Shown here piece by piece: positions 14,318 through 45,223 of a DNA stretch of 64,000 nt (positions are counted from its first letter, which is position 1; each line of letters starts with the position of its first letter). The position numbers were made by a program, and so were the translations under genes. The stretch is from an uncultured virus (IMG/VR IMGVR_UViG_3300015608_004663) (Duplodnaviria > Heunggongvirae > Uroviricota > Caudoviricetes), in IMG/VR virus record IMGVR_UViG_3300015608_004663, one strand, 5' to 3'. The notes beneath the pieces are model-generated. The model saw only the letters and a list, made by a program, of their open reading frames with translations, ran no database searches and was not told the DNA's origin.

Positions 14318-15850
14318 CTAATTTGTTTCATCATAGATGACAGAGCTTAGAGCTACAAAAGTCCTGCACACGCTCGCTGCGTTTTCAAAAGCGCACACAG
14401 CAGCAAGAGCAGAATCAATCAGCCAGATTGGATTGTGCACTATCTCATCATTCAAAGCATCATACGCATCTTCTAAATTCTTGCGAGAGACTGTGAACCA
14501 ATCAAATGAGCGACCAGCATTCTTCACGATAGCTCTAGCTGGTGCTTCTGCGCCAGCTTTCAAAATCTCTCTTGTCTGTGAATCTACGTCAGACATGTCT
14601 GTCATAGCTAGAGCGTCAAGCATCGCGGCGCCGCCGCCTCTAACAACACCGCTGATCAGAGCAGCTTTGCAGGCAGCTACTGCATCTTCTACTCTGTGCT
14701 TCTTCTCAATCATCTCTGCTTGAGTTGGAGCGACTATTCTTACGATCGCGTGCTTCGCAGCTAGTGAAGCTATTCTTGATTGAATAGCAACTCTCTCTCT
14801 GCTGTCTGCACACTCTTTCAGTTTCTCTGTCAAAAAGTCTATCTGGGAATTTACTCTAGACTGATCTTGCAAAATGAGAGCGCAGCCAGTTTTGTCAGCG
14901 TAGAATCGCTTGATCAACCCTGGTTTTGCTGGACTGTCAGCATCTGCGTCTAAAGGTTCAGCACCAACAGCAGCTGCGATGTCTGTGACTTCATCGTATG
15001 TCGGTCTGATCAGTTTGCAAGCGTAAACATCTATGTTTGCTTTTGTTCTGTTGTTAACGAGTGCTTGCAGAGCAGCTTGATCATAATCTGAGTACAGAAG
15101 TAACACAGCTATCTTTTGCTTCTGCGCTTCTTGCAGAACGGGTATGATGCTGGAGAATGATTGCAATCTGCCGCGAGAGATCACGACAAGCGTTGATTCT
15201 GCAGCGCAAGCTAGCTTGTTTTGAACGTTCGCAAAGTGCGCTGATAAGATCTCAGCTCTGATGATTATGCCATCAGAGATTGACACGCTTGTTATACCGG
15301 TGTCTGCTGACTCAAGCTGGATCTTTCCGTTTTCTCCAGCTCCCAAGACAGCATCAACTGCAACAGACGCTAATTCGCTGTCACCGTTAGCTGCTATCAG
15401 CGCCACTCGCCGAAGCTGCTCTTCTTCGCGACACGGTTTAGCAAGAGCTAAAAGATTTTTGGCGAATCTGCTAAAGATAACTGGTAATTCGCGCCTGAGC
15501 TTTGATTGCGAAAAATTAGCTGCGATTGCTCTCTCTGCTTGAGACAGCATCGCTTCGATCATAACTGTGCAGGTTGATGTTCCGTCACCAGCAGATTCAG
15601 CTGTTTTTCTTGCTGCGTCTTGCGCTAATTCTGCGCCCATCTTCTCAGCTGGATGCTTTGGAGACACAGATTTGCTGACGGTGACACCGTCTTTAGTTGC
15701 TATCGTTTTACCGTCTGTGTCTTTTAGTAGAACTGTGAGTCCGCAGGGACCCATGGTAGAGCTAACAGGATTTGCAACAGCGCGAACACCAGCTAGGAGA
15801 CGCTCTCTTGCTTCTTGACCTTGCAGTATTACTGTGTGCGTTTTATTCAT
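14318..15850 (-). CDS. groEL: Chaperonin GroEL-like protein
   Basis: TMGPCG, TKDGVTV, AGDGTST, GVVRGGG. Confidence 0.92.
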   Translation of the reverse strand: MNKTHTVILQGQEARERLLAGVRAVANPVSSTMGPCGLTVLLKDTDGKTIATKDGVTVSKSVSPKHPAEKMGAELAQDAARKTAESAGDGTSTCTVMIEAMLSQAERAIAANFSQSKLRRELPVIFSRFAKNLLALAKPCREEEQLRRVALIAANGDSELASVAVDAVLGAGENGKIQLESADTGITSVSISDGIIIRAEILSAHFANVQNKLACAAESTLVVISRGRLQSFSSIIPVLQEAQKQKIAVLLLYSDYDQAALQALVNNRTKANIDVYACKLIRPTYDEVTDIAAAVGAEPLDADADSPAKPGLIKRFYADKTGCALILQDQSRVNSQIDFLTEKLKECADSRERVAIQSRIASLAAKHAIVRIVAPTQAEMIEKKHRVEDAVAACKAALISGVVRGGGAAMLDALAMTDMSDVDSQTREILKAGAEAPARAIVKNAGRSFDWFTVSRKNLEDAYDALNDEIVHNPIWLIDSALAAVCAFENAASVCRTFVALSSVIYDETN

Positions 15851-15881
15851 GTCGATCTAGATTTAAAGCTCTAGATCGACA
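15850..15881. promoter_or_regulatory. 12-bp inverted repeat abutting the groEL start
   Basis: TGTCGATCTAGA-N8-TCTAGATCGACA. Confidence 0.6.
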
Positions 15882-27765: not shown

Positions 27766-28003
27766 CTACTGCAAACTCTTTACCCTCTGGTGTTCTAAGA
27801 ATGACATCTTTCTTTGAAACTGACACGACAGTGTAAAGAAATCCAGTAGAAGAATGTTTAACTTTTAGATCGGGAGATGCATCATCGATCTTAGCATTCA
27901 CACTTTCTAACAAAGATGATAGCATAAACTCAAATTGTTTTTTTGCGCGCAAAATATTCATTTTACAGTATGTAATATCACAAAACAAACTTGTGCACAT
28001 CAA
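27731..28003 (-). CDS. Hypothetical SH3-like protein
   Basis: LKVKH...LYTVVSV...LRTPEG. Confidence 0.6.
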   Translation of the reverse strand: MMCTSLFCDITYCKMNILRAKKQFEFMLSSLLESVNAKIDDASPDLKVKHSSTGFLYTVVSVSKKDVILRTPEGKEFAVDAATFEKDYEI

Positions 28004-28916
28004 CTCCAGTATTTTTCAGCAACGCGATTCCAGAAGCATCTCTGTACTCTGATTCATAAATGACTTTTGATATGCGAGCGTTGATGATTGCTTTTGCGCA
28101 CATTATGCACGGACTGTGAGTAACGTACATGTATTTTTTTTGCAAACTGTGATAATCGAGCTTGATTAAGGCATTAAGTTCAGCGTGAATCATCCCAGAC
28201 TGACCTGGAATTTGCGACTCTCGCTCGTGCGGCCCGCCACGATAATTACCATTATATCCATGTGATAGAATCGTTGTGTTCTCATCATTTACGATGACAG
28301 CGCCAACTTTCAAAGAAGGATCATAAGATCTTTGCGCGATCAAGCGAGCCATTGTCATCCACGTCACGTTCCAGCTGTTTCTTTGCACAGCGCTAGAGAC
28401 ATCGTAGTCTGGAAACAGAGCAGAGAATCGCTGCAGAAACGCCACTTCAGCTTCGCGTGGAGTCATCGCTATGATCTCCATTGCGTAAGGATCGTGCGCG
28501 AAATCAAAACTGTGTGTTAACACTTGCTTGATCTCAGTTGCGCACACGCGTTGATCTGCATCATGAAGATCGTGCGGCTCGTTTTTGATATCTAAACCAA
28601 AGCGCTCATAAATTGACGCTTGAAGCTTGTGCTCAAGCTTGCGATAATCTGCAAACATTTGCGATTTTTTCTGAGGAGACGGAATGTCAAGCATGTACGC
28701 TTCAGACGCATCGTGCAGCAATCCATAGCGTGGATCTGAAGCGTACATTGATACTAGCACACTGTGCTGCGCAACACTGTAAAAATTCTTCACATGACCA
28801 GCATACCTGCAGATATTTGATAAAGCTTTAGCGATATCAAATATGTTTATATCATTGATATTATAAGAAAAAATATCAAATTTAACGCCGTTATTCGTCA
28901 TGATGTACGATGACAT
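27978..28916 (-). CDS. YfbR-like HD 5'-deoxynucleotidase fused to dCMP deaminase
   Basis: CRYAGH, YSVAQHS, LLHDASEAY; then HAELNA and SPCIMC. Confidence 0.88.
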   Translation of the reverse strand: MSSYIMTNNGVKFDIFSYNINDINIFDIAKALSNICRYAGHVKNFYSVAQHSVLVSMYASDPRYGLLHDASEAYMLDIPSPQKKSQMFADYRKLEHKLQASIYERFGLDIKNEPHDLHDADQRVCATEIKQVLTHSFDFAHDPYAMEIIAMTPREAEVAFLQRFSALFPDYDVSSAVQRNSWNVTWMTMARLIAQRSYDPSLKVGAVIVNDENTTILSHGYNGNYRGGPHERESQIPGQSGMIHAELNALIKLDYHSLQKKYMYVTHSPCIMCAKAIINARISKVIYESEYRDASGIALLKNTGVDVHKFVL

Positions 28917-28962
28917 ATATCATTTGCTTTCATTTGTTCAGATGTGATACGAGACTGCAGAA

Positions 28963-29517
28963 TCACTTTCTGCCAAGCAGTGGATGGTGCTTATAGCAAA
29001 CAGGTTCGTATGCTTCTGGACCACCTATCTTCACATCTTGTTCAGTTGGTTGTGAGCCATGTTTGAAGCTTGTGAATCTTGCATTTGCGCCACACACTAC
29101 GCAGACTGCATGAAGCTTATTGACAGCAGTAGCAATGCTAAGCAACTTCATAGATTCTTCAAATGGAATGCAACTTGCAGACAGATCAAGAGTTGATACA
29201 GATGCAGAGCAACCACGCATGAAATTATCCATGATTGCATCAGCTATGCCTTTGATCATAAAGGCTTCATCCACAGCAACAAACGTTGCTGTTTTTGTGA
29301 TCTCTCGAAACTCTTCTGCGCTCTCAATCGCAATAGCTTGCACGCTAAGACCCATGTGAGTGATAACAGAGTTATGAGCGTAGCGAGTGTCTATCTTGGG
29401 CTTCACTATAACAACATTATCACGACGATACTTGGCTCTCTCTGCGTCAACAAGCAAGTGAGTAGTCTTTGAAGCCATCATTGGGCCGCAGTAAACTGTG
29501 ATAGATGGTTCAATCAT
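28963..29517 (-). CDS. tdk: Thymidine kinase
   Basis: GPMMASKT, VDEAFM, CVVC, IGGPEAYEPVC. Confidence 0.92.
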   Translation of the reverse strand: MIEPSITVYCGPMMASKTTHLLVDAERAKYRRDNVVIVKPKIDTRYAHNSVITHMGLSVQAIAIESAEEFREITKTATFVAVDEAFMIKGIADAIMDNFMRGCSASVSTLDLSASCIPFEESMKLLSIATAVNKLHAVCVVCGANARFTSFKHGSQPTEQDVKIGGPEAYEPVCYKHHPLLGRK

Positions 29518-30482
29518 CTGAATGACTCAAACGCCCAACCGTGCCATGCGCACTTTTCTTTGATAAGAGCGTAACTTTCTTGTTTCAATCCGTTCTTACG
29601 CAACCAAAAAGCACCAATCAGCACTATGAAATCAAACCAGTATTCATCAATCTCGCTTGAAGCTCGAGACAGCACGTTTTCAACATCAGAGACTGATGCA
29701 GCACTGCGCAGATCTTGCTCTGCTTGAAGCATTTTTTCTAATGGGGGTTTTGATTTCATCTCTGGCATAGAGATCGATGCTTGCTTGCTATTGTTTGCAA
29801 GAACAATATTAACTTTATCAAAATCACGCTCGTAGATGTGCACTGATCCACCAGTGTGATTGTAAGATCCAAGTTTCACACCAAGCTCTAGCGCCATCAG
29901 CTCTTGAAAAAGAGTAAACGCTGGAACGTCGTTGGCAAGACCTAACCACAGATCTGAGCTGCGCATAGAGGCCCACATGTGGAGCGCGCTGTCTCTGATA
30001 AAGAACTGAAAGCCAATCGTGCAAGGAACATCAAGTTTCGCATGAAACGAATCGTGTGGCAATCTAATGTGAATGAACGCGCGGCGAGAATCTGGATCGC
30101 GCGTCAGCTCTTGCTTCACCCACTCCCACTGAGAGTGATTTATGCCCAACTCTGAAGCTTGCTTAAAGATCCTAGCGCCGTAGGCGGAATTCACATTAAC
30201 GCCATCATCAGATATCTTTGTCCAGAACGGAGCGTAGGGTGCAATCCAATTTACAGATCTAATACCTGCAAGATACCAAAGGCACTCAGCTGCCATGTAC
30301 TGAGGACTGTACAGTCGGCCGCTTATAAAGGGTAATCTGTGTCGAGGATTTGTGATTTTAAAAGATGAACACAAATTTTCTTTTATAAACTGTCCTCGTG
30401 GAGAGCAAGTAAACTCTGCTTCTTGAGCAACAGAGCGCAATTCAGCTAAATAAGCATCTGTGAACGTTTCAAATGATTTCAT
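29514..30482 (-). CDS. Thymidylate synthase-family enzyme, predicted dCMP hydroxymethylase
   Basis: PCT, MRSSD, GLAND (Asp where ThyA has Asn177), SVHIYE. Confidence 0.8.
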   Translation of the reverse strand: MKSFETFTDAYLAELRSVAQEAEFTCSPRGQFIKENLCSSFKITNPRHRLPFISGRLYSPQYMAAECLWYLAGIRSVNWIAPYAPFWTKISDDGVNVNSAYGARIFKQASELGINHSQWEWVKQELTRDPDSRRAFIHIRLPHDSFHAKLDVPCTIGFQFFIRDSALHMWASMRSSDLWLGLANDVPAFTLFQELMALELGVKLGSYNHTGGSVHIYERDFDKVNIVLANNSKQASISMPEMKSKPPLEKMLQAEQDLRSAASVSDVENVLSRASSEIDEYWFDFIVLIGAFWLRKNGLKQESYALIKEKCAWHGWAFESFR

Positions 30483-36146: not shown

Positions 36147-36419
36147 TCACTGATATTGCACGCTTAAGTGCGGATCTTGAAACAAGGCAATCTCTGCACT
36201 AAGAGTGCGCAGCACGATCTTGACGCCAGATTTTCTAAACGTAATACCTGTGACATTATACAACTTACTAGTGCGATCTCGCTCTAAAATCTCAAGAGCG
36301 CCATCGTAATAAGCTGGAACTTTAACGACTGAGTAGATGTCTTCATTGCTGACGCAGCACTCTTCTTCACCAGTCGGATCTAGTTCCGACAGCAGCTTGA
36401 TCAATTCTTTTGTTTTCAT
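36147..36419 (-). CDS. Hypothetical protein
   Basis: MKTKELIKLL phage-type start. Confidence 0.65.
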   Translation of the reverse strand: MKTKELIKLLSELDPTGEEECCVSNEDIYSVVKVPAYYDGALEILERDRTSKLYNVTGITFRKSGVKIVLRTLSAEIALFQDPHLSVQYQ

Positions 36420-37017
36420 AAGTCTGACAATCTTCCAGAAATTTAGTGATAGTTGAAATTTGTTGCTCTAAATTCTCACTATCAACGCAAAGTTTTAAAG
36501 TGCGGCACCGAGTGAATTCGCTGATGAAGCGAGCGTATGCATCAGATAATTCTTGCAATTTTTCAGAATTTATGCTCGGATCAATATCATCACACAGATT
36601 TTCATACGTTGTTCTGTAGCAGAAAATGATCTTTGCATCAAGTGATGCGTACGAATCATCTTCTAACCTGAGCATCTTGTGATCTGTTTCTCTGTTAGTC
36701 ACTGCAGAGTAAACATACTCGCATGGATATCCACGATCAAAGATCACAGATAGATTAGTTTGCTTGATCAGATCAAACACTCGCATATCAGCGTATCGTA
36801 GCTGATTCAGAAACAGCTCTCGCTTGTTAGCGAAAGAATTGTGCTCAGATGATGCTTTGAAATAAGCGATGTTCAAGCGCTGCGCAAGAGCTTTAGCGAT
36901 GTTTGTTTTACCAGTTTTGTCTGGTCCGACAAAAAAAATTATCTGCTGCGCACTATTCGTGTTCTTAAGCAAGGTGCACCAATCTGTTTGTTGAGTAACC
37001 AAACGCTGACTTTTCAA
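36367..37017 (-). CDS. Deoxynucleoside monophosphate kinase (thymidylate kinase-like)
   Basis: GPDKTGKT, IFDRGY; start uncertain. Confidence 0.8.
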   Translation of the reverse strand: MKSQRLVTQQTDWCTLLKNTNSAQQIIFFVGPDKTGKTNIAKALAQRLNIAYFKASSEHNSFANKRELFLNQLRYADMRVFDLIKQTNLSVIFDRGYPCEYVYSAVTNRETDHKMLRLEDDSYASLDAKIIFCYRTTYENLCDDIDPSINSEKLQELSDAYARFISEFTRCRTLKLCVDSENLEQQISTITKFLEDCQTYENKRIDQAAVGTRSDW

Positions 37018-38488
37018 GCGGAGCCATCATGATTGACATCTTTTTTACATCTTGCACAGACCAAACGTAAATTTTGTTCACTTTTCCAACTGGTCCGATG
37101 GCATCGATAAGAAGATACTGCTTCTTATTTTTTGATGTTTTCTTTGTCACGTTTTGCACGCAAAACCAAGCTACATCGCTTTCGTCTTCATCAACATCAT
37201 CTATAGATGGTACGTTTCTTTCGATCAGCTTTTCCATAACTCTATCTGGGATCAGCAGCGATACATCTGCTGATCCGACGATCTTGACAACGTTGTTCAT
37301 TTTTTCTTCGCGAGTCCACGGAGCTATATGAGCCGTTTCAAGCGCTAGCGCGCGCATCGTGTCACGCCCTTTGAAAGGATCTTTCTTAGTTGATTTTTTC
37401 AACTCATCCCAGTGACCGATGATAACGTCATGCATCTGCTTGTAATTTGCAAAGATGCAATTTTCACCAACGCACTTCAAAGAATCAAGACCCTGCACTA
37501 AAATAAGAGCTTCCAAAGCTCGCTTGTTAAACTTTGACAAGCGCCAAGATCCGTCTTCATTCCAGAACAGATCTTCTATAGATGAGAATGGCCGCAGCTG
37601 AAGAATCTCATCAATCGCTGTTTCACCTATGCCCTTGTACGAACTGAATGATGGCATAAGCTGCTTGCCGGGAAGCGCTGTCCACTGTCGCTCTGCGTAA
37701 TTGATGTCAACGTTCACTATCTTGTATCCAACTGCTCTGATCTCAGAGAAAGCTTTAGATCTGTCATCGGGATTCTTGGACATTGACTGCAGATACGCAC
37801 AAACCCACTCTGTTTCATGAAACGTCATCAGCCACGCGCAAAAATAACTGTCGATGGCATACGATACAGCGTGTGCTGCGTTAAATCCATAACCAGCGAA
37901 CCACAAAATTCTATCATAGAGATTCTCTGCAATCTGCACAGAGTACCCATTTTTCACGCAACCACTCACGAAACTATCGCGCATAGCTTGCGCTTTTTTC
38001 TTGGCATCTTCGCCGCCGCCAATGGTTCGCTTCATGATCGCTTTGCGCAGCTTGTCGCACTCTTCAAGAGGAAATCCAGCAACTTCGTGTGCTAGTTGCA
38101 TAACTTGCTCTTGAAAAATAATCAAACCATTAGTTTTTTTTAACACTTCATTGATGCGCTTATCGCCCCAATCGTACTCTTTGCCGTTTCTAGCGTCAAC
38201 ATAAAGCTGATCAACTTTCGCAGCAAGTGGACCAGGTCTGTAAATAGACGTCAACGTAGCAATGTCAACAATTGACTTTGGTTTTGCGCGCTTGAAAAAG
38301 CGCTGTGCCCCACTTTGCGTGCACTGAAAAACGCCAGCCCACTTTCCTTTGTGATAGATGTTTTCATATACTTTCTGGTCGTGAAGATCAACTACGTCTG
38401 GTGCTAAATTGTTATTATACCAGTCTTTGATTTCAGAAAAATCAACATTACTACCATCTGTAAGTTTCACAGATTTAACAATCGCCAT
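36965..38488 (-). CDS. dnaE: DNA polymerase III alpha, C-terminal half of a split gene
   Basis: GVFQ, IYRPGP, IIFQEQVM, AGYGFNAAHAVSY, KGIG. Confidence 0.95.
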   Translation of the reverse strand: MAIVKSVKLTDGSNVDFSEIKDWYNNNLAPDVVDLHDQKVYENIYHKGKWAGVFQCTQSGAQRFFKRAKPKSIVDIATLTSIYRPGPLAAKVDQLYVDARNGKEYDWGDKRINEVLKKTNGLIIFQEQVMQLAHEVAGFPLEECDKLRKAIMKRTIGGGEDAKKKAQAMRDSFVSGCVKNGYSVQIAENLYDRILWFAGYGFNAAHAVSYAIDSYFCAWLMTFHETEWVCAYLQSMSKNPDDRSKAFSEIRAVGYKIVNVDINYAERQWTALPGKQLMPSFSSYKGIGETAIDEILQLRPFSSIEDLFWNEDGSWRLSKFNKRALEALILVQGLDSLKCVGENCIFANYKQMHDVIIGHWDELKKSTKKDPFKGRDTMRALALETAHIAPWTREEKMNNVVKIVGSADVSLLIPDRVMEKLIERNVPSIDDVDEDESDVAWFCVQNVTKKTSKNKKQYLLIDAIGPVGKVNKIYVWSVQDVKKMSIMMAPLEKSAFGYSTNRLVHLA

Positions 38489-38497
38489 GATTTATAC

Positions 38498-38527
38498 ACT
38501 ATACTTAGTAGTTCGCATTATTTGCAC
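38498..38527 (-). promoter_or_regulatory. Putative promoter GTGCAA-N18-TATAGT for dnaE-C
   Basis: Recurring motif 9 nt before the ATG. Confidence 0.65.
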
Positions 38528-38733
38528 ACAATTCAATTGGAGATTCAATTATCATGACGCAAGAATCAATCTTTGAAGCTTTAAACATTGATTCGTTGCT
38601 TTGATCCAAAGCAACATGCGCGCGCAAATTAAGCTGCATCGCAGCAAATGTGTCACGTAAGTTAGCTCTGATTATTTCGCGCGTCAATCACTGCTTGCAA
38701 TGCGCAATCAATGCAATCAACTTTGTTCGGAGA

Positions 38734-38922
38734 TCATTCAATGATAGCATCGCGCATAGTTCGATCATTGCGCGTTGACGGCAATTTATCACGTCTCTTT
38801 GGTGCGCGGTGCTTACAAAGAGAACACTTCTCACCATCTTTTACGTGATTTGCGTCACAGCCGCGACACCAGAAAGATCTACGTGAATCAGCTTTAAGTT
38901 TCTTGCTTCGATTATCACTCAT
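38734..38922 (-). CDS. Small Zn-finger-like protein
   Basis: CRGCD...CSLC. Confidence 0.55.
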   Translation of the reverse strand: MSDNRSKKLKADSRRSFWCRGCDANHVKDGEKCSLCKHRAPKRRDKLPSTRNDRTMRDAIIE

Positions 38923-39015
38923 ATTAAATCACAAACGCAGACAAGCGCGCGCAATTCAGGCTGTCAGAAACTAGTCTGAGCTGCTTCAGCGCGAATTCAC
39001 TTGCTTTGACACCAC

Positions 39016-39360
39016 TTATGAATGAGTGTCTTGCGCTTCAGCATGCTTTGACAAAGCTATATTTTCTTTTGTTTCTTCTCTCTTGTTTAGATGCAGCACG
39101 CTGAGAAGCAGCGTCGTTGTAGACATAACAAATCCAGTCGTAGATGCTGGAAATTCCAGCAATTTTTTTGACGCGATGCTCATGATCATCCACGTAAACA
39201 GCGGCAGCAGGACTGACACTGGAACGCACAGCATCACGAGCAAGCGCGACGTTGATGGATTTGTGCCATCGCTAAGAGCGGATTTCAACCAAGTCGCAAA
39301 TGATTCTTCTTGGTTAGAAACAATTATTGAGTGATATTCTTGTTCGTCTTGCTTGATCAT
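39016..39360 (-). CDS. Two-TM membrane protein (holin-like possible)
   Basis: PSTSRL followed by two hydrophobic helices. Confidence 0.6.
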   Translation of the reverse strand: MIKQDEQEYHSIIVSNQEESFATWLKSALSDGTNPSTSRLLVMLCVPVSVLLPLFTWMIMSIASKKLLEFPASTTGFVMSTTTLLLSVLHLNKREETKENIALSKHAEAQDTHS

Positions 39361-39845
39361 GATAATGCATCTACAATCATATCTGACACAAAATCTTTTA
39401 TTTCACGTCTAGACATGCCAGTAGCTACAGAGAGCTCTTTCCAATCTTCGTAACTGACAAAGAAAGATTCTGCGATATCAGGCACGTCAGCGATCGTCAG
39501 ATCAGGATCACCTTCAAAGTTAAGGATGAACTCTTTCACGTAGTCTTCAAGCTTCTCAAAAGCTGTTTCTGACGTAAAAGAATCTGATGGAAGATCTTCT
39601 GAAGAAGATAGCGACTCAACTTCTTGATCTGAAAGATAGAAACGATTCTTGCTCTGCCGAACGTACTGTGGGTGCAGATCAGAGCTGTCATATCGACTAC
39701 CCGCTGCCAAGAACACTTCACCAGTTTCATGATCAATCAGATCTTCATCTGTGATATCACTTCCACGTGCATTAGCGATGTGCTGCGCAAGGTCTTGTTT
39801 TGTTTTAAAAGTAGCTTCACTAATTAATCTGCGAAGTTTTTTCAT
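39357..39845 (-). CDS. Hypothetical acidic protein
   Basis: ORF starting MKKLRRLISE. Confidence 0.7.
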   Translation of the reverse strand: MKKLRRLISEATFKTKQDLAQHIANARGSDITDEDLIDHETGEVFLAAGSRYDSSDLHPQYVRQSKNRFYLSDQEVESLSSSEDLPSDSFTSETAFEKLEDYVKEFILNFEGDPDLTIADVPDIAESFFVSYEDWKELSVATGMSRREIKDFVSDMIVDALS

Positions 39846-39853
39846 AAAAGTAT

Positions 39854-40792
39854 TTATTTTGCGCTAGCTAATTTTTCTAATTTTAGAAGAAATTCTGAAC
39901 TCTCACGCTTGCCTAAAGCGCTAAAATTCAGATCGTGACTTGCAACAATATCACGCAAGCTCAAACCTGATTCGCTGATCATGTTTATCACTGTTAGAAG
40001 CGCAGAAAGCTCTTGTTTAGAAAGCGTAATTGCAGAAAGTCTGTAATCATCAAAAGCAGCAGCGACATCTGGCACCCATTGTTTTACGATATTCCACATA
40101 GCATCTGCGTACACTCTGATCTCATACTGAGCGTGCTTGTCTAAGCGCAGCGCCAAGAAGTGCAGAAGGTTGTGCAGATCGATCTTCCAGTACATCTCAG
40201 TATAATAATTCAATGACAGACTCATTCTAGCTAACTCTCTAGCTAGCTGCGGCCGATCTCGATCAATTGCAGCACCAGTTCCATCATCATTTAGTAGATG
40301 AGCGTAAACATCATACGCTTGCTCAGAATGCTTGCTGATTGCATCAATGATATCATCACAAATCTCTGATTGCATCATCGTGTCAGTCAGATCACGACCT
40401 TGCTTGTTTGTTACGCTCTGTTCACCAAGCGCATTAGCATCAGGGATGTAAAACTCACGATTGAGAATTGAATATCTTGCTGAGTACTCATTGATGTTTG
40501 CTGTGCGATGACGAATCCACTGCCTAGCAACGAAGATCGGAAGCTTGATGTGCAGCTTGATCTCGCACATCTCAAACGGCGTAGTGTGACGATGTCGCAT
40601 CAAGTAGCGAATCAGCGCAACATCTTCTGAAACTGTTTTCGTTCCAGTGCCGTATGATACGCGGGCAGCTTGCACAATCGCAGACTGATCACCCATGTAG
40701 TCTATGACTCGAATAAAACCGTGATCAAGAATGTTGATTTTGTTGCCTAAAATTTCATCCAGTGCTGCACTGTTAATTCGACGCTCTTGCAC
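39854..40792 (-). CDS. thyX: Flavin-dependent thymidylate synthase
   Basis: AARVSY, HTTPFE, RQWIRHRTANINEYSARY, HAQYEIR. Confidence 0.97.
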   Translation of the reverse strand: MQERRINSAALDEILGNKINILDHGFIRVIDYMGDQSAIVQAARVSYGTGTKTVSEDVALIRYLMRHRHTTPFEMCEIKLHIKLPIFVARQWIRHRTANINEYSARYSILNREFYIPDANALGEQSVTNKQGRDLTDTMMQSEICDDIIDAISKHSEQAYDVYAHLLNDDGTGAAIDRDRPQLARELARMSLSLNYYTEMYWKIDLHNLLHFLALRLDKHAQYEIRVYADAMWNIVKQWVPDVAAAFDDYRLSAITLSKQELSALLTVINMISESGLSLRDIVASHDLNFSALGKRESSEFLLKLEKLASAK

Positions 40793-40805
40793 TTCACGCC
40801 TCCAG

Positions 40806-41453
40806 TTAGTTTAGACAAAATCGTATCAGCTGCTCAATAATGAATCCAAGCAGCAATGATGCAATGATCTGATTTCGTGTTGATACAGCTTTTGTAATTT
40901 GCTTGATCTCTTTTTGAAGCTGCTCATTTTTATCAATAGCGCTAGCAGCCGTGATCATAGCATCAAATTTACCATCAGTCCACTGAGCTACATCACTGTT
41001 CTTTAATTTTGCACCGTGCTTTGATTCCCAAGCTGCGCAGATGCTACTAAGTTTCTTTGAAACTTGCTTTAACGATTCATCATCTAAAGATGCAAGATCC
41101 GAGCTCTCAGTAGTGACTGGGCAGTTTTTGTTGCAGCAGATGAGGTGCATCGCTTGAAGCTGCATATCTTTTTGAGATATTACGTCATTTGCAGCACTCA
41201 CAGCTAGTTCTAGCTCGTGAATCCTTTTAGATTGCATCTTGCAAAGATGCGTTTTATCTAAGTCGTGAAGCGTTGATCTTTGAGCGTAAATCATCCCACG
41301 TGGGATATCGTGTTCATTTAAAATTGGCACTCCAGCAGCTTCGAGTGCATCTTTTGCTGTGTAAACATTATTAACGCGCCAAGCACGATTTATAAATTTA
41401 AGCTCTGGATAGACTGTTAATTTTGTTTGCATGCTGATTCTCAATTTGCTCAA
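40806..41453 (-). CDS. Coiled-coil protein with C-terminal TM helix
   Basis: ORF. Confidence 0.6.
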   Translation of the reverse strand: MSKLRISMQTKLTVYPELKFINRAWRVNNVYTAKDALEAAGVPILNEHDIPRGMIYAQRSTLHDLDKTHLCKMQSKRIHELELAVSAANDVISQKDMQLQAMHLICCNKNCPVTTESSDLASLDDESLKQVSKKLSSICAAWESKHGAKLKNSDVAQWTDGKFDAMITAASAIDKNEQLQKEIKQITKAVSTRNQIIASLLLGFIIEQLIRFCLN

Positions 41454-42078
41454 ATTCTAAGATCGCTGCGCACAACCACGCTTCAAGTTTTTTGATTGCT
41501 TGTGATTCTTTGTTTGATGCGATCTTTGCTGTCTCTCTCCAATACCACTTAAGATCACTAACATCAGTGTTGAAGATGCTGACAGCAGTTTCGTATCCTG
41601 ATGCATTGCAATCATCAAGCAGCGATAAAATGTTGTGATACGTGTCAGCAAGCTTCACAGCCAAAACAGCATCTGTGCTTTTGTTCAGTCTGCTTAGATG
41701 CTCTTCTTTTCTAACGCGCCAAGAGAGTTTATTTCCCGATAAATCTTTTTTGATCTCTGATAAATCAGACACCATCTGCAGCGTTGTTTTGATCGCTGAC
41801 TCTGCGCAATTAAATCGAACAGACATGATGCATTCAATGCGCTCGATCGAGAGCGCCGTGTCTTCAATAACGTCATGCATTATAGCTGCAGCTAATGCGC
41901 ACTCATCTTCAACGCCAGCTTGAGCGCAAATTAGCGCGACCGCTACAGGATGTGTGACATAAATTGCAGCAGCTGCGTTTTTTCTGCGCTGCGATGAGTG
42001 TGCATCAATGCTGATGTGCAGAGCCGCTTCGATTAACTGAGATTTAAACATGTACTTCTCTCTTAACTTGTTCGACAT
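41398..42078 (-). CDS. Mesh1/RelA-SpoT-type HD hydrolase
   Basis: AHSSQRRK, YVTHP, HDVIEDT, VKLAD..HN. Confidence 0.85.
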   Translation of the reverse strand: MSNKLREKYMFKSQLIEAALHISIDAHSSQRRKNAAAAIYVTHPVAVALICAQAGVEDECALAAAIMHDVIEDTALSIERIECIMSVRFNCAESAIKTTLQMVSDLSEIKKDLSGNKLSWRVRKEEHLSRLNKSTDAVLAVKLADTYHNILSLLDDCNASGYETAVSIFNTDVSDLKWYWRETAKIASNKESQAIKKLEAWLCAAILEFEQIENQHANKINSLSRA

Positions 42079-42117
42079 TGAGCATTACACAACGATCTTA
42101 ATCATAGTGCAGATCGT

Positions 42118-44349
42118 TTATCGCAATTCTTCTACATCATCTCCTTCACGCAAATCTTTGACCAAAACTTCTCCACGATTCTTTGTTACAGCAATAGCAT
42201 CACCGAACGCGTAGAACGCTCCAAGGTCAGTATCAACTTCATACCAACCTCTAGTTTTTCTGTCGGATGTGATTATCAACTCTATAGTTTTTTCAACAAT
42301 GCGCAGCGTATCAAGACCCAGAAGATCAAACTTGATCCAACCAAACTGGTCAAGTTCTTTTACGTTAACACCTTCTGCCCACGGCGTTTGAAGCTCACCC
42401 TTTGAAGCGATCAGCGGCATCCTTTCAGCAATTCTATCACAAACAATGACACCGCCAGCGTGTCGGCCAAGCGAGCGCTGCTGCTTAAACAGCGTCGCGA
42501 TCGGTCCAGCAACTTCTGGATGGGCATCGATGAAAGATTTGAATGACGGACTGTGCTGCATAGCATCTTCAAACTTCAACACAAATAGATTCTTATCATC
42601 GCCGTGCTTGAGCGTCGCTTTTCTGACTTCGGCTTCAACTGTTTTTGTTGCAATGTTAGCTTCTTCAAACGGCACACCGTAAAATTTAGCAACGTCTTTG
42701 ATAAGAGTTTTCAGCTTGAAAGTATTGTAGTTGCTGATTGGCACAACATTTTCTGCACCAAAACGCTCTTTAAGCAGTTCAATAAGTTTAGCTCTGTTTG
42801 AGACGTCTGTGTCAACGTCTGGAGCTTCTTCGCGATACTTGTTAAGAAACCGCTCAAACAGAAGATCATACTTGATTGGATCAACATCAGTTATTTTTAG
42901 TAGATACGTCACAAGCGAACCTGCACCAGATCCTCGGCCAGGTCCGACGAGCATGGCTTCTTGAGCTACGTGAATGATCTCTCGCAAAGTCAAAAAATAC
43001 TCTGCAAATTTTTTATCTTTGATGACGTCAAGCTCTTTAGCTAAGCGCTCTTCATAAGTTTTATTTCCTTTAAACTTTCGCTCAATCATGCCAGCTTCAC
43101 ACAACTCAACAAGACGAGCATCGGCTGTCATGCCAGCTGGCACGACGATAGAAGTTGGCAATTTCATTGAACGATCTGGCTGCACATCTCCAATCACGTT
43201 GTGCGCTACGTGGTGAGAGCGTTCAATGGCATCAATGATCTCATCATCGTCATAAAAATTATTGTCTTGCTTGTGCTCAAGATACGCGCTCCAAACTTGA
43301 GATGCATTTTTTGGGTATAGCTCTGCTTTCAGCTCTGAAACAGAGTTTGGAAGCTTTGTTTGATTTGGATCTGCGTTTTTTAACCAACCTAATTTTTTGT
43401 AGATTTCACGCTCGCGCCACAGCTCAGGTCTTGGATAGTGACTATCTGTTGCTACAATCAGTTGCTTTGTGAGCGAGTGCTTTCTAGCAAAGTCAAGAAG
43501 CGCTCTGTTAACGTATCCCTGAGCTTTCAATCTGTTGAATTGCATCTCAAAGTAAACATTTTGCTCTCCAAAAGCCCACAGCAGCTTATCATAAGCTGCA
43601 TCAAGCTCTGACATGACAGCTTTGTGCAGAGACGCATTATCAAGCAGCGAGCTGTCAATGTTTTCAAACTTAATTTTTTGCGCAGATGACAAAGCAGCGT
43701 AAGCTAGCGGTCCGCCAACGCAAGCTGTCAACGCAATCAAGTGACCACCTGTTGCAGCTTCTTTTAACATAGCGTAATCAACGCGAGGAAAGCGATAAAA
43801 CCCATCTGAGTAGCTTCGCGAGATAAGATGAAATAAGCGCTGCAGTCCTGTGCTTGTAGTTGGAATGACTACAAGATGATGACGTCTGTTAATTGGATTG
43901 AAGTACTTTGTTGATTTTGACTCTTCTTCACGCTCAATCGTGAGCGCGTTTGTTGTCTCAAGCTCAATTGACTCATCATCATCATCTGTTGTAGATACAA
44001 TCGGCGTAACGATCTCTTGCTCGTTAAGCATTTCTTGCTTGTGAGCAAGATCGTCTTCTGCGCGATCTTTTGATCGCTCGTACTCAGCTCTCCATTCATT
44101 TAAATCAGGATGAACGTACATTTCGCAGCCAGCGATAAATTTAAACTTCTTGTCTTGTTTCTTAAGCTTCTCTGAAAAAAGAAACGCAGATGCGTATGAA
44201 TTGCAGTGACCGTGCTCAGTGAGCGCCCACGCATCCATACCATTTTCTAATACAAATTTGATGTGTTCTTCAGGAGAACCAAGTCCATCATAAACAGACA
44301 TGCCAGTGTGACTGTGAAGTCCCACAAATTTGGTTGGTGATGTTTTCAT
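42118..44349 (-). CDS. dnaE: DNA polymerase III alpha, N-terminal half (PHP + palm) of a split gene
   Basis: LHSHT..S..DG, GRGSGAGS, FERFLN, PDVDTD, HAGG, KFDLLGL. Confidence 0.95.
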   Translation of the reverse strand: MKTSPTKFVGLHSHTGMSVYDGLGSPEEHIKFVLENGMDAWALTEHGHCNSYASAFLFSEKLKKQDKKFKFIAGCEMYVHPDLNEWRAEYERSKDRAEDDLAHKQEMLNEQEIVTPIVSTTDDDDESIELETTNALTIEREEESKSTKYFNPINRRHHLVVIPTTSTGLQRLFHLISRSYSDGFYRFPRVDYAMLKEAATGGHLIALTACVGGPLAYAALSSAQKIKFENIDSSLLDNASLHKAVMSELDAAYDKLLWAFGEQNVYFEMQFNRLKAQGYVNRALLDFARKHSLTKQLIVATDSHYPRPELWREREIYKKLGWLKNADPNQTKLPNSVSELKAELYPKNASQVWSAYLEHKQDNNFYDDDEIIDAIERSHHVAHNVIGDVQPDRSMKLPTSIVVPAGMTADARLVELCEAGMIERKFKGNKTYEERLAKELDVIKDKKFAEYFLTLREIIHVAQEAMLVGPGRGSGAGSLVTYLLKITDVDPIKYDLLFERFLNKYREEAPDVDTDVSNRAKLIELLKERFGAENVVPISNYNTFKLKTLIKDVAKFYGVPFEEANIATKTVEAEVRKATLKHGDDKNLFVLKFEDAMQHSPSFKSFIDAHPEVAGPIATLFKQQRSLGRHAGGVIVCDRIAERMPLIASKGELQTPWAEGVNVKELDQFGWIKFDLLGLDTLRIVEKTIELIITSDRKTRGWYEVDTDLGAFYAFGDAIAVTKNRGEVLVKDLREGDDVEELR

Positions 44350-44357
44350 TTAATTTG

Positions 44358-44387
44358 AGTATAAGCTGATTACGCAGAGCAGTGCAC
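44358..44387 (-). promoter_or_regulatory. Putative promoter GTGCAC-N18-TATACT for dnaE-N
   Basis: Recurring motif 8 nt before the ATG. Confidence 0.7.
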
Positions 44388-44390
44388 AAA

Positions 44391-44903
44391 TTAATCAGTG
44401 ATGCGATCGCAAGACACAGAATTAATAAATGTCTCAAATGATGAGATCAATTCATCATCACTTTGAAAAAATCTATCAGCCCACAAGTGACTGGGAGATC
44501 TATCACCGTTGTCAGGATATCCCACAACACAAGTGATCTTATTTGCACCAACAGCTGCTCCCCAATCAGCGTGCGCATCAGCGCCAGCAAGCAACAGCAA
44601 AATGCACACATCGCACTTTTTGATAATAGCAAGATTGTTTTTCATCATCTCTTGATAGAGATGCATGTTTTGCAGATACTCTCCATATTTGTTATTTTGT
44701 GGTTCGTATTTTGATGCGTATTTTGTTTTTGGCTGCTCATCACAAAGTTGAAAATCTAAATCTAACGCTTGATTAACTTTCAATCGTGACTTGCTGTCTG
44801 TGAAATCAAACACAATGTGTCCGCGTTCAGACAATACGTGAGCGATTTTGTTCACACGATCTTTCTGTTTCCATGAAGCCGCGATGTAAATTTTCGACAT
44901 CAA
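44391..44903 (-). CDS. Nucleoside 2-deoxyribosyltransferase-like protein
   Basis: KIYIAASW, IKKCDVC, AHADWG. Confidence 0.65.
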   Translation of the reverse strand: MMSKIYIAASWKQKDRVNKIAHVLSERGHIVFDFTDSKSRLKVNQALDLDFQLCDEQPKTKYASKYEPQNNKYGEYLQNMHLYQEMMKNNLAIIKKCDVCILLLLAGADAHADWGAAVGANKITCVVGYPDNGDRSPSHLWADRFFQSDDELISSFETFINSVSCDRITD

Positions 44904-45223
44904 ATGTTCCTCATTTTATTATAAATTTTGCGCAACTCAAAACAATCAGTTGTTCTATTCATCTCATCTTTACAGCGCCAACAATTATCGCAAGCTGTTC
45001 CAGAAACATAAGTTCCCTTGCACAATCTTGTTGGATGACCGTAACCGTGTCTGATTGCATCTTCATATAACTTAAACAAATGGCGATCAAACAAAAATGC
45101 ATCATCATCATGAAATGAAAATGCTTTCATCCATGAATGATCGCATAAAAAAGTTTTGTAATAATCACAATATTGTTTGTCAGACATGCTCGTCAAGCGC
45201 AGTAACTGTGTACACTGATTCAT
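44900..45223 (-). CDS. Hypothetical protein
   Basis: ORF with C-terminal Cys cluster. Confidence 0.55.
   Translation of the reverse strand: MNQCTQLLRLTSMSDKQYCDYYKTFLCDHSWMKAFSFHDDDAFLFDRHLFKLYEDAIRHGYGHPTRLCKGTYVSGTACDNCWRCKDEMNRTTDCFELRKIYNKMRNI

Follow-up and report, generated by a model that had tools for sequence, protein, structure and literature searches.

What holds together a phage polymerase that is encoded in two pieces? The question is raised by the dnaE locus of an uncultured Caudoviricetes virus (IMG/VR record IMGVR_UViG_3300015608_004663), of which a stretch of 64,000 nucleotides, hereafter the window, was analysed. Here DnaE is specified by two separate open reading frames (ORFs), dnaE-N and dnaE-C, and the protein ends at the break carry short additional sequences, a C-terminal tail on DnaE-N and an N-terminal head on DnaE-C. 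We find that the tail is homologous to half of an N-intein and that the residues required for splicing are missing. We consider it probable that the replicase consists of two never-spliced chains, and that the half-Hint tail and the head pair and hold or position the two halves.

DnaE is encoded by two consecutive ORFs with extra sequence at the break

Both ORFs lie on the minus strand and encode consecutive portions of one C-family polymerase. dnaE-N (42118..44349; 743 residues) encodes the PHP and palm/NTPase domains followed by the tail, and dnaE-C (36965..38488; 507 residues) encodes the head followed by the fingers, helix-hairpin-helix (HhH) and C-terminal domains. Pfam placed PHP at residues 11-270 (E 8.3e-28) and the Pol III alpha NTPase/palm domain at 413-678 (E 8.3e-61) of DnaE-N, and the finger domain at 19-181 (E 1.2e-35) and HHH_6 at 254-338 (E 1.3e-8) of DnaE-C; the DnaE domain order of PHP, palm/NTPase, finger and HhH is therefore intact, spread across two ORFs. 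On the PHROG 405 profile (1190 positions), the N-half covers 40-620 and the C-half 615-1025, and since this coverage is consecutive, the two ORFs are successive pieces of one polymerase. The gap between them (38489..42117; 3,629 bp) holds five genes and a 527-bp spacer. An earlier note on this DNA, made from the sequence alone, had described DnaE as two genes about 3.6 kb apart with unrelated genes between them, and the ORF calls, Pfam and PHROG 405 all agree with it. It had also given each half its own promoter, a claim that found no support: 16 sigma-70-like sites were found in 36300-45000, where 16.4 ± 4.9 were expected. All genes in the dnaE region lie on one strand.

Most relatives of this polymerase are unsplit proteins of about 1,200 residues (55-58% identity). 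In local alignments with one of them, P0009, homology of the N-half ends near the close of the helix after KFDLLGLDTL, reaching to within about 44-50 residues of the DnaE-N C-terminus, and homology of the C-half restarts at the F of FSEIKDWY. The DnaE break is at the palm/finger junction. Because homology stops and resumes at these points, a tail of about 44 residues (RGWYEV...EELR) and a head of about 16 residues (MAIVKSVKL...) have no counterpart in the unsplit enzyme. The tail comprises residues 700-743 of DnaE-N (42121..42252, minus strand) and the head residues 1-16 of DnaE-C (38441..38488, minus strand); the tail's position (W702 at 42246, running to 42121) and the start of the head are exactly as the earlier note wrote them.

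Homology of the tail to the second half of N-inteins

At other sites, members of the DnaE family contain genuine inteins and split inteins that retain Cys1, TxxH and His-Asn, and genuine split inteins occur even in tail-bearing genes (loci L009, L048 and L075). Visual alignment places the tail, with no gaps, on the last ~40 residues of the family's N-inteins. In an hhalign comparison of 12 tails with 11 family inteins, tail positions 3-43 matched columns 46-86 of 137 (P 3.6e-4, with a database-calibrated probability of only 37%). A hidden Markov model (HMM) of the tail scored four real inteins at 16.9-20.7 bits, exceeding all 22,000 shuffles (maximum 12.6), with the remaining listed family inteins at no more than 9.8 bits. 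In the opposite direction, the window's tail scored 6.6 bits on the family intein HMM, a value reached by 0 of 5,000 shuffles.

Searches outside the family used a profile of 10 tails, built from DNA references only. Against all PDB sequences, the top three of its six matches were Hint proteins, led by the NrdJ-1 split intein (E 1.7e-5; tail 15-42 on residues 78-105 of 151) with Sonic hedgehog second (E 1.1e-3) and a Vint-type chain third (E 0.03); the other three (E 0.17-1.9) were unrelated proteins. Against 1.84 billion representatives, the profile matched 299 proteins at E<=1e-3. Pfam was run on those of the best 150 that were 700 residues or shorter (94 proteins, leaving out 56 longer ones), and Hint-superfamily domains were present in 82 of the 94. 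The 12 without a Hint family were six DnaE tails or fragments, the PolA fragment P0295, P0337, P0353, P0392 and two repeat proteins; P0337 and P0353 are canonical N-inteins as judged by eye, and the two repeat proteins are probably spurious matches. Many of the matched proteins are N-exteins of ribonucleotide reductase (RNR), helicases, terminase or gyrase in which the match ends 0-5 residues from the end of the protein, i.e. at the natural split point. A 42-residue match fragment puts the tail similarity at positions 50-93 of 155 in PF14890.

Fold comparisons gave the same picture. The AlphaFold2 model of the lone 44-residue tail has five short strands and a mean predicted local distance difference test score (pLDDT) of 92. 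With this model as the query, the first seven Foldseek rows were inteins, and nothing reached E<=0.001. VIA-align gave Z>=2 for 36 of 205 chains, and all 31 rows listed are inteins or a bacterial intein-like (BIL) domain (Z 2.0-4.6; root-mean-square deviation 2.0-2.8 Å over 41-44 residues). The model is matched by residues 53-96 in the Npu DnaE N-intein, 44-86 in gp41-1 and 54-95 in both the RecA and the DnaB mini-intein. Modest Z-scores are to be expected for a query of 44 residues, and the argument from fold lies in the consistency of the matches and of the matched region. Together, the profile searches and the model overlay reveal strong Hint similarity and bear out the proposal of the earlier note that the tail matches the latter half of an N-intein: it is homologous to the Hint superfamily and corresponds to the N2 half, on the block-B side.

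The same split is found in relatives

We compared the best 120 N-half matches, the best 120 C-half matches, 80 IMG/VR loci and 80 metagenome loci. A similar tail is present in 11 of the 120 N-halves (736-755 residues; 53-89% identity), and 57 of the 120 C-halves, the window's own protein included, start at the same site with a head of 9-16 residues. Twelve loci bear a tail (seven from IMG/VR and five from metagenomes), and both halves are visible in 10 loci, always in the same order and on the same strand. Conservation of tail and head extends to relatives of only 43-53% identity; related phages were where the earlier note had proposed to look for the split and its tags. By these comparisons, the split is old and widespread. 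Two further loci that were flagged as split (L118 and L147) are actually unsplit genes cut by contig ends. Among GenBank phages there were no close relatives (1,391 protein matches were all below 60% identity, the 40 listed being at 27-28%, and megablast found nothing), and a single-sequence scan of IMG/VR gave no match.

The phage DnaE family is broken or invaded at no fewer than seven (>=7) different sites, and three- or four-piece genes occur in L009, L048 and L075. One family member, P0072, contains an N-intein that lacks Cys1 and has TWDH at block B, and is perhaps class-3-like.

As a family, the heads resemble the start of C-inteins

A common pattern in the heads is M-[KA]-[IK]-[VKI]-[SKT]-[IS]-[ITV]-K, which is like the start of the family's C-inteins. 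We scored them on a C-intein HMM made from 31 real C-inteins, with 17,100 shuffles as decoys. The 95th percentile of the decoys was exceeded by 36 of the 57 heads (about 3 expected) and the 99th percentile by 19, and the median score was 3.2 bits, compared with -1.9 bits for the N-termini of 101 full-length DnaE proteins. At the level of the family, the head is therefore a candidate for the first strand (C1) of a C-intein.

Four other DnaE pieces (P0129, P0165, P0199 and P0232) start with 16-21 residues that end in His-Asn before the extein (TD/SD/CD...DRD). They would represent naturally split inteins whose C-fragment is unusually short.

The residues required for splicing are missing

The tail begins right after the extein, and the first ~50 residues of an N-intein, with block A and the residue-1 nucleophile, are absent; the family's N-inteins are 92-130 residues long, against 44 for the tail. 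At block B, the window's tail has FGDA instead of TxxH, and T..H is present in just one of 20 distinct tails, elsewhere than at block B. The heads (9-16 residues) are likewise short compared with the family's real C-inteins (34-53 residues), which end in HN or SN. Blocks F/G with the terminal His-Asn are missing from the heads, [HS]N[CST] is matched in 1 of 57, and the residue preceding the extein Phe is variable, with no conserved +1 Cys/Ser/Thr. Tail and head together (44 + ~16 residues) amount to less than half of the contiguous mini-inteins of the DnaE family (128-140 residues). As the earlier note had observed, the window's tail and head have no block A/Cys1, TxxH or His-Asn end, and because these elements and block F/G are missing, splicing by any known class is not credible.

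Tail and head probably pair at the palm/finger junction

The Hint fold is described as two pseudo-C2 units, the second of which, residues 60-110 in gp41-1, consists of the end of the N-intein (IntN) and the start of the C-intein (IntC), and a charge network joins the strand at the C-terminal end of IntN with the first IntC strand (Beyer et al., 10.1101/546465). Split-intein assembly is presented as starting with an electrostatic contact between the IntN end and the IntC start (Dassa et al. 2009, PMC2677866; a 2025 review, PMC11766414). The retained tail and head correspond to this second pseudo-C2 unit (N2 + C1).

Consistent with such a contact, the tails are acidic (mean charge of the last 40 residues -3.3; net negative in 18 of 20) and the heads are basic (mean charge of the first 10 residues +1.9; net positive in 50 of 57). 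Seven tail positions are invariant across 12 sequences. Between the window and its 87%-identical relative L081, the proportion of changed non-synonymous sites (pN) in the tail is 0.214 and that of synonymous sites (pS) is 0.901, compared with a pN of 0.081 in the core; synonymous sites are saturated in this comparison, and only pN and pS, not dN/dS, were used. These values indicate that the tail is under purifying selection, looser than that on the core.

A complex prediction for tail residues 696-743 with head residues 1-30 scored 0.43, and the best of three controls 0.02. The score is above a mark that 116 out of 157 solved complexes pass, as do 2 out of 215 mismatched pairs, and the runs showed at least 90% contact agreement with a partner pLDDT of at least 56. 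Because only 18 of the 157 solved complexes, together with both passing mismatches, pass at 0.60 or under, the prediction gives tail-head pairing weak support, and its score may be helped by likeness to solved split inteins.

We propose the following mechanism. The polymerase would be synthesised as two chains, with no splicing to join them. The end of the N-chain (~44 residues) and the start of the C-chain (~10-16 residues) would form one pseudo-symmetric Hint unit, N2 + C1, the portion that makes the first charge-driven contact between fragments in real split inteins, and the catalytic portions (N1 with Cys1, TxxH, block F/G with His-Asn, and the +1 nucleophile) are missing. Most likely, the acidic tail and basic head pair as beta-strands. 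Paired in this way, they would round off a small beta domain at the palm/finger junction and hold or position the two halves. The proposal builds on the split, the homology of the tail, the missing splicing residues and the conservation of both ends; opposite charges, purifying selection and the complex prediction suggest the pairing of head and tail and a role in assembly.

Points against the proposal and alternative explanations

Several observations weigh against this proposal. The window's own 16-residue head scores -0.4 to 0.1 bits on the C-intein HMM, within the shuffles, and its intein ancestry accordingly depends on the family of heads. Pfam found no family at E<=10 for the tail alone or the head alone, and the Foldseek E-values and VIA Z-scores of the tail model are modest because the query has only 44 residues. 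Non-synonymous change in the tail is about 2.6 times that in the core. The complex prediction is graded as weak support, and contacts were not part of its output. No complete intein was found at the tail/head site of DnaE among 392 proteins and 160 loci, and tblastn found no endonuclease remnant in the gap between the halves in the window. Finally, by analogy with the broken NrdA of Aeh1 (see below), 'clasp' may be too narrow a term. Of the claims made in the earlier note, the likeness of the head to a first C-intein strand hence stands for the family of 57 heads and not for the head in the window; the suggested complex of tail and head passed its mark with weak support; and the heterodimerisation clasp is consistent with charges, selection and prediction, with its function deduced from these. 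Hint similarity, splicing residues, conservation and the complex prediction, on which that note had staked its reading, were each examined, and none overturned it.

It is unlikely that tail and head are neutral relics, the remains of a split intein or endonuclease insertion now dead, and that the halves join solely by way of the native palm-finger interface. A relic would suit the faster evolution of the tail relative to the core and the fact that the window's head, taken singly, is not intein-like; split enzymes are also able to reassemble untagged. A relic would not be expected to show an architecture maintained in both halves down to 43-53% identity, seven tail positions that are invariant in 12 sequences, a pN far under pS, or charge complementarity that is retained in 18/20 tails and 50/57 heads, and useless tails of 44 residues should erode by deletion in phage genomes.

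Alternatively, the tails could be functional without forming a simple heterodimer clasp, for example in positioning the junction, in higher-order assembly or in binding another replisome partner. We regard this as quite improbable, since the tail is the N-intein half that pairs with the first C-intein strand in the solved split inteins described (10.1101/546465) and the predicted tail-head pairing beat its controls, albeit weakly. The Aeh1 NrdA tails, reported as essential for activity and not for the a/b heterodimer (Crona et al. 2011, PMC3045599), are the precedent for such a role, and the tail folds alone in AlphaFold2 (pLDDT 92) and may be a small independent domain.

That the intein likeness is convergent or due to chance, reflecting a generic beta-hairpin motif, is very improbable. 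The matches are short, Pfam alone misses tail and head, and VIA Z-scores stay below 5; against this, Hint proteins lead three independent searches (PDB profile, whole-library and fold), and the match is always in the same region, ending at the natural split point. It is barely conceivable that the two chains are still ligated by a trans-splicing element of minimal or unorthodox form. Real split inteins do occur elsewhere in the gene family, and L009, L048 and L075 have them in the very genes that are split here; but N1, the residue-1 nucleophile, TxxH, block F/G, His-Asn and a conserved +1 Cys/Ser/Thr are all lacking, and 44 + ~16 residues fall below half of a mini-intein of 128-140 residues.

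A possible cassette origin of tail and head

The slot between the two dnaE halves varies among relatives. It is 274 bp in L002 and holds a homing endonuclease in L009, L048 and L060 (PHROG matches with E 2e-9 to 6e-13; Pfam Vsr below cut-offs, and DUF559 above its cut-off in L048 only). In these three loci, the first part of the C-half, at the head, shares 13, 23 and 8 bp, respectively, with the endonuclease gene; the downstream flank is overlapped in 3/3 and both flanks in 2/3. L006 and L007 contain a decayed endonuclease, 51% identical over 94 residues to that of L009 (tblastn, E 3.6e-27); this pseudogene (L006:8828-9907, also in L007) looks intermediate between occupied and empty slots. The slot of L075 holds an ORF of 402 residues on the opposite strand, and in L081 it is filled by the five cargo genes that the window also has. 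In L083 and L085 it consists of ~1.6 kb of small paralogous ORFs. These two relatives (69-70% identical; L083:3331-4903 and L085:1561-3133) have five or six such ORFs of 65-139 residues with a shared N-terminal M-[ST]-x-R-[FY]-x-P-G.

Two routes of ancestry are open: truncation of a split intein in place, or arrival of an endonuclease cassette that carries the adjoining intein ends. A region-limited word search gave 19 matches, only close relatives and palm matches, and no complete intein at the site. The overlap of the endonuclease gene with both flanks favours the cassette route, as far as gene arrangement can indicate. Profile-matching C-terminal tails without room for N1 were also seen by eye on P0295, P0271, P0276 and P0392. 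P0295 is a family-A polymerase fragment, P0276 also holds a full intein and P0392 is a helicase-like fragment. P0271 is an RNR fragment broken just past a CEILLPT stretch, which we take to be the NrdA active-site motif, near the position of the Aeh1 break. As judged from their sequences, the N1-less tails on the PolA fragment, the RNR fragment and a third protein would likewise favour the cassette route. The locus of the PolA fragment P0295 was not found in IMG/VR.

The origin of tail and head is likely to be the homing-endonuclease cassette of a 'fractured gene', whose flanks would code for intein ends, and the endonuclease slot in the window's phage would now be occupied by cargo genes. More tentatively, and with somewhat more doubt than confidence, we suggest that tail, endonuclease and head make up a mobile 'cut-and-clasp' cassette that breaks new genes or sites and supplies the non-covalent antidote. 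The variety of slot contents among relatives (nothing, endonuclease, decayed endonuclease or cargo) is a hint in this direction. If true, such a cassette would account for the tails whose source eluded Crona et al., and half-inteins would be a natural family of small heterodimerising tags.

Cargo genes and genomic context of the split

All five cargo genes in the window's gap lie on the minus strand. Downstream of dnaE-N, the first encodes an HD_4/HD phosphohydrolase of the RelA/SpoT type (41398..42078; Pfam and PHROG), which is syntenic in L081. It is followed by an ORF of 215 residues without a Pfam or PHROG match (40806..41453), by thyX, encoding the flavin-dependent thymidylate synthase (39854..40792; PF02511, E 2.3e-56), and by two ORFs without a Pfam match, one of 162 residues (39357..39845) and one of 114 residues with hydrophobic stretches (39016..39360). 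The 527-bp spacer upstream of dnaE-C (38489..39015) has short ORFs only and no endonuclease remnant, and is not conserved with L081. A hidden C-intein or read-through upstream of dnaE-C was considered and rejected, as stops crowd all three frames of 38489-39016. No further tails or inteins were found elsewhere in the window.

The window represents the replication and nucleotide-metabolism module of a large phage, and also encodes a ligase, a clamp-loader-like ATPase, an unsplit RNR of 815 residues, DnaB, a UvsX-like recombinase and a single-stranded DNA-binding protein (SSB). A GroEL-like chaperonin is encoded at 14321-15856 (PHROG 5725, E 1.2e-90). A ThyA-like enzyme (29517-30482; PHROG 5131/160) is present in addition to ThyX (39854-40792) and a fused deoxynucleoside monophosphate phosphatase-dCMP deaminase (27981-28919), a combination that may point to modified-base or redundant dTMP synthesis.

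Comparison with known split enzymes and split inteins

In the literature searched, only the work of Dassa et al. and Crona et al. came close, and no description of half-intein tails on DnaE was found. In Aeh1, nrdA is split by mobE, and the unique tails of the fragments are reported to be essential for activity (Crona et al. 2011, PMC3045599). The same work describes them as unneeded for the a/b heterodimer and needed for higher-order assembly and activity, and speculates that they are remnants of degenerate inteins, expected to evade similarity searches. NrdA-a and NrdA-b resemble the DnaE halves in that, as described, their break tails are absent from unsplit homologues and oppositely charged, with neither RNA nor protein splicing reported; they differ in the host enzyme and in the polarity of charge, which is reversed (the tail of the Aeh1 N-fragment is basic). 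The Aeh1 NrdA-a tail did not match the DnaE tail profile, and the NrdA-b head gave a marginal 6.3 bits, reached by 7 of 5,000 shuffles. Compared with Aeh1 NrdA, the intein homology of the DnaE tail is statistically demonstrable, and it is the function of the tail that is deduced. Assembly tails were therefore already known; what is new is that a half-Hint identity can be demonstrated, that the host is DnaE, and the breadth of occurrence. If the proposal is correct, this would be sequence-level proof of an origin for assembly tails that was only speculated on in 2011, and suggests that assembly tails can be found by profile search after all.

Fractured genes, as described by Dassa et al. (2009, PMC2677866), combine a split intein with a free-standing homing endonuclease that has a downstream overlap of 6-69 bp. 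The same study notes an SbcD-like gene, 'without a split intein', whose break carries 25 and 9 additional residues. The parallels are close: hosts are phage-type replication genes including DnaE, the halves keep the same order and strand, the endonucleases of our relatives L009, L048 and L060 overlap the downstream part by 8-23 bp, inside the published range, the break falls between intein motif N4 and motif C2, and the two long interacting strands carry opposite charges of the same polarity. In contrast to fractured genes, only N2 and C1 are present here, without catalytic blocks and hence without trans-splicing; no homing endonuclease lies between the halves in the window, where five cargo genes fill the slot; and the palm/finger site is unlike the real split-intein sites seen in the DnaE family. 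If true, an essential replicase would survive a break by a mobile element without splicing, keeping just the docking half of an intein.

Split-intein assembly has been modelled as 'capture and collapse' (Shah 2013, via PMC11766414 and 10.1101/546465). The tail overlays the C-terminal half of the N-fragments of the cyanobacterial DnaE, NrdJ-1 and gp41-1 split inteins, in a region whose strand, in those systems as described, pairs electrostatically with the start of the C-fragment. Unlike these inteins, the DnaE tail and head are without the N1 unit, the C2 strands and the nucleophiles, and, if our proposal is true, would be a natural test of the capture step in the absence of a catalytic scaffold. 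The pair of tail and head (~44 and ~12 residues, acidic and basic, with many natural variants) would also be a candidate for small orthogonal heterodimerisation tags.

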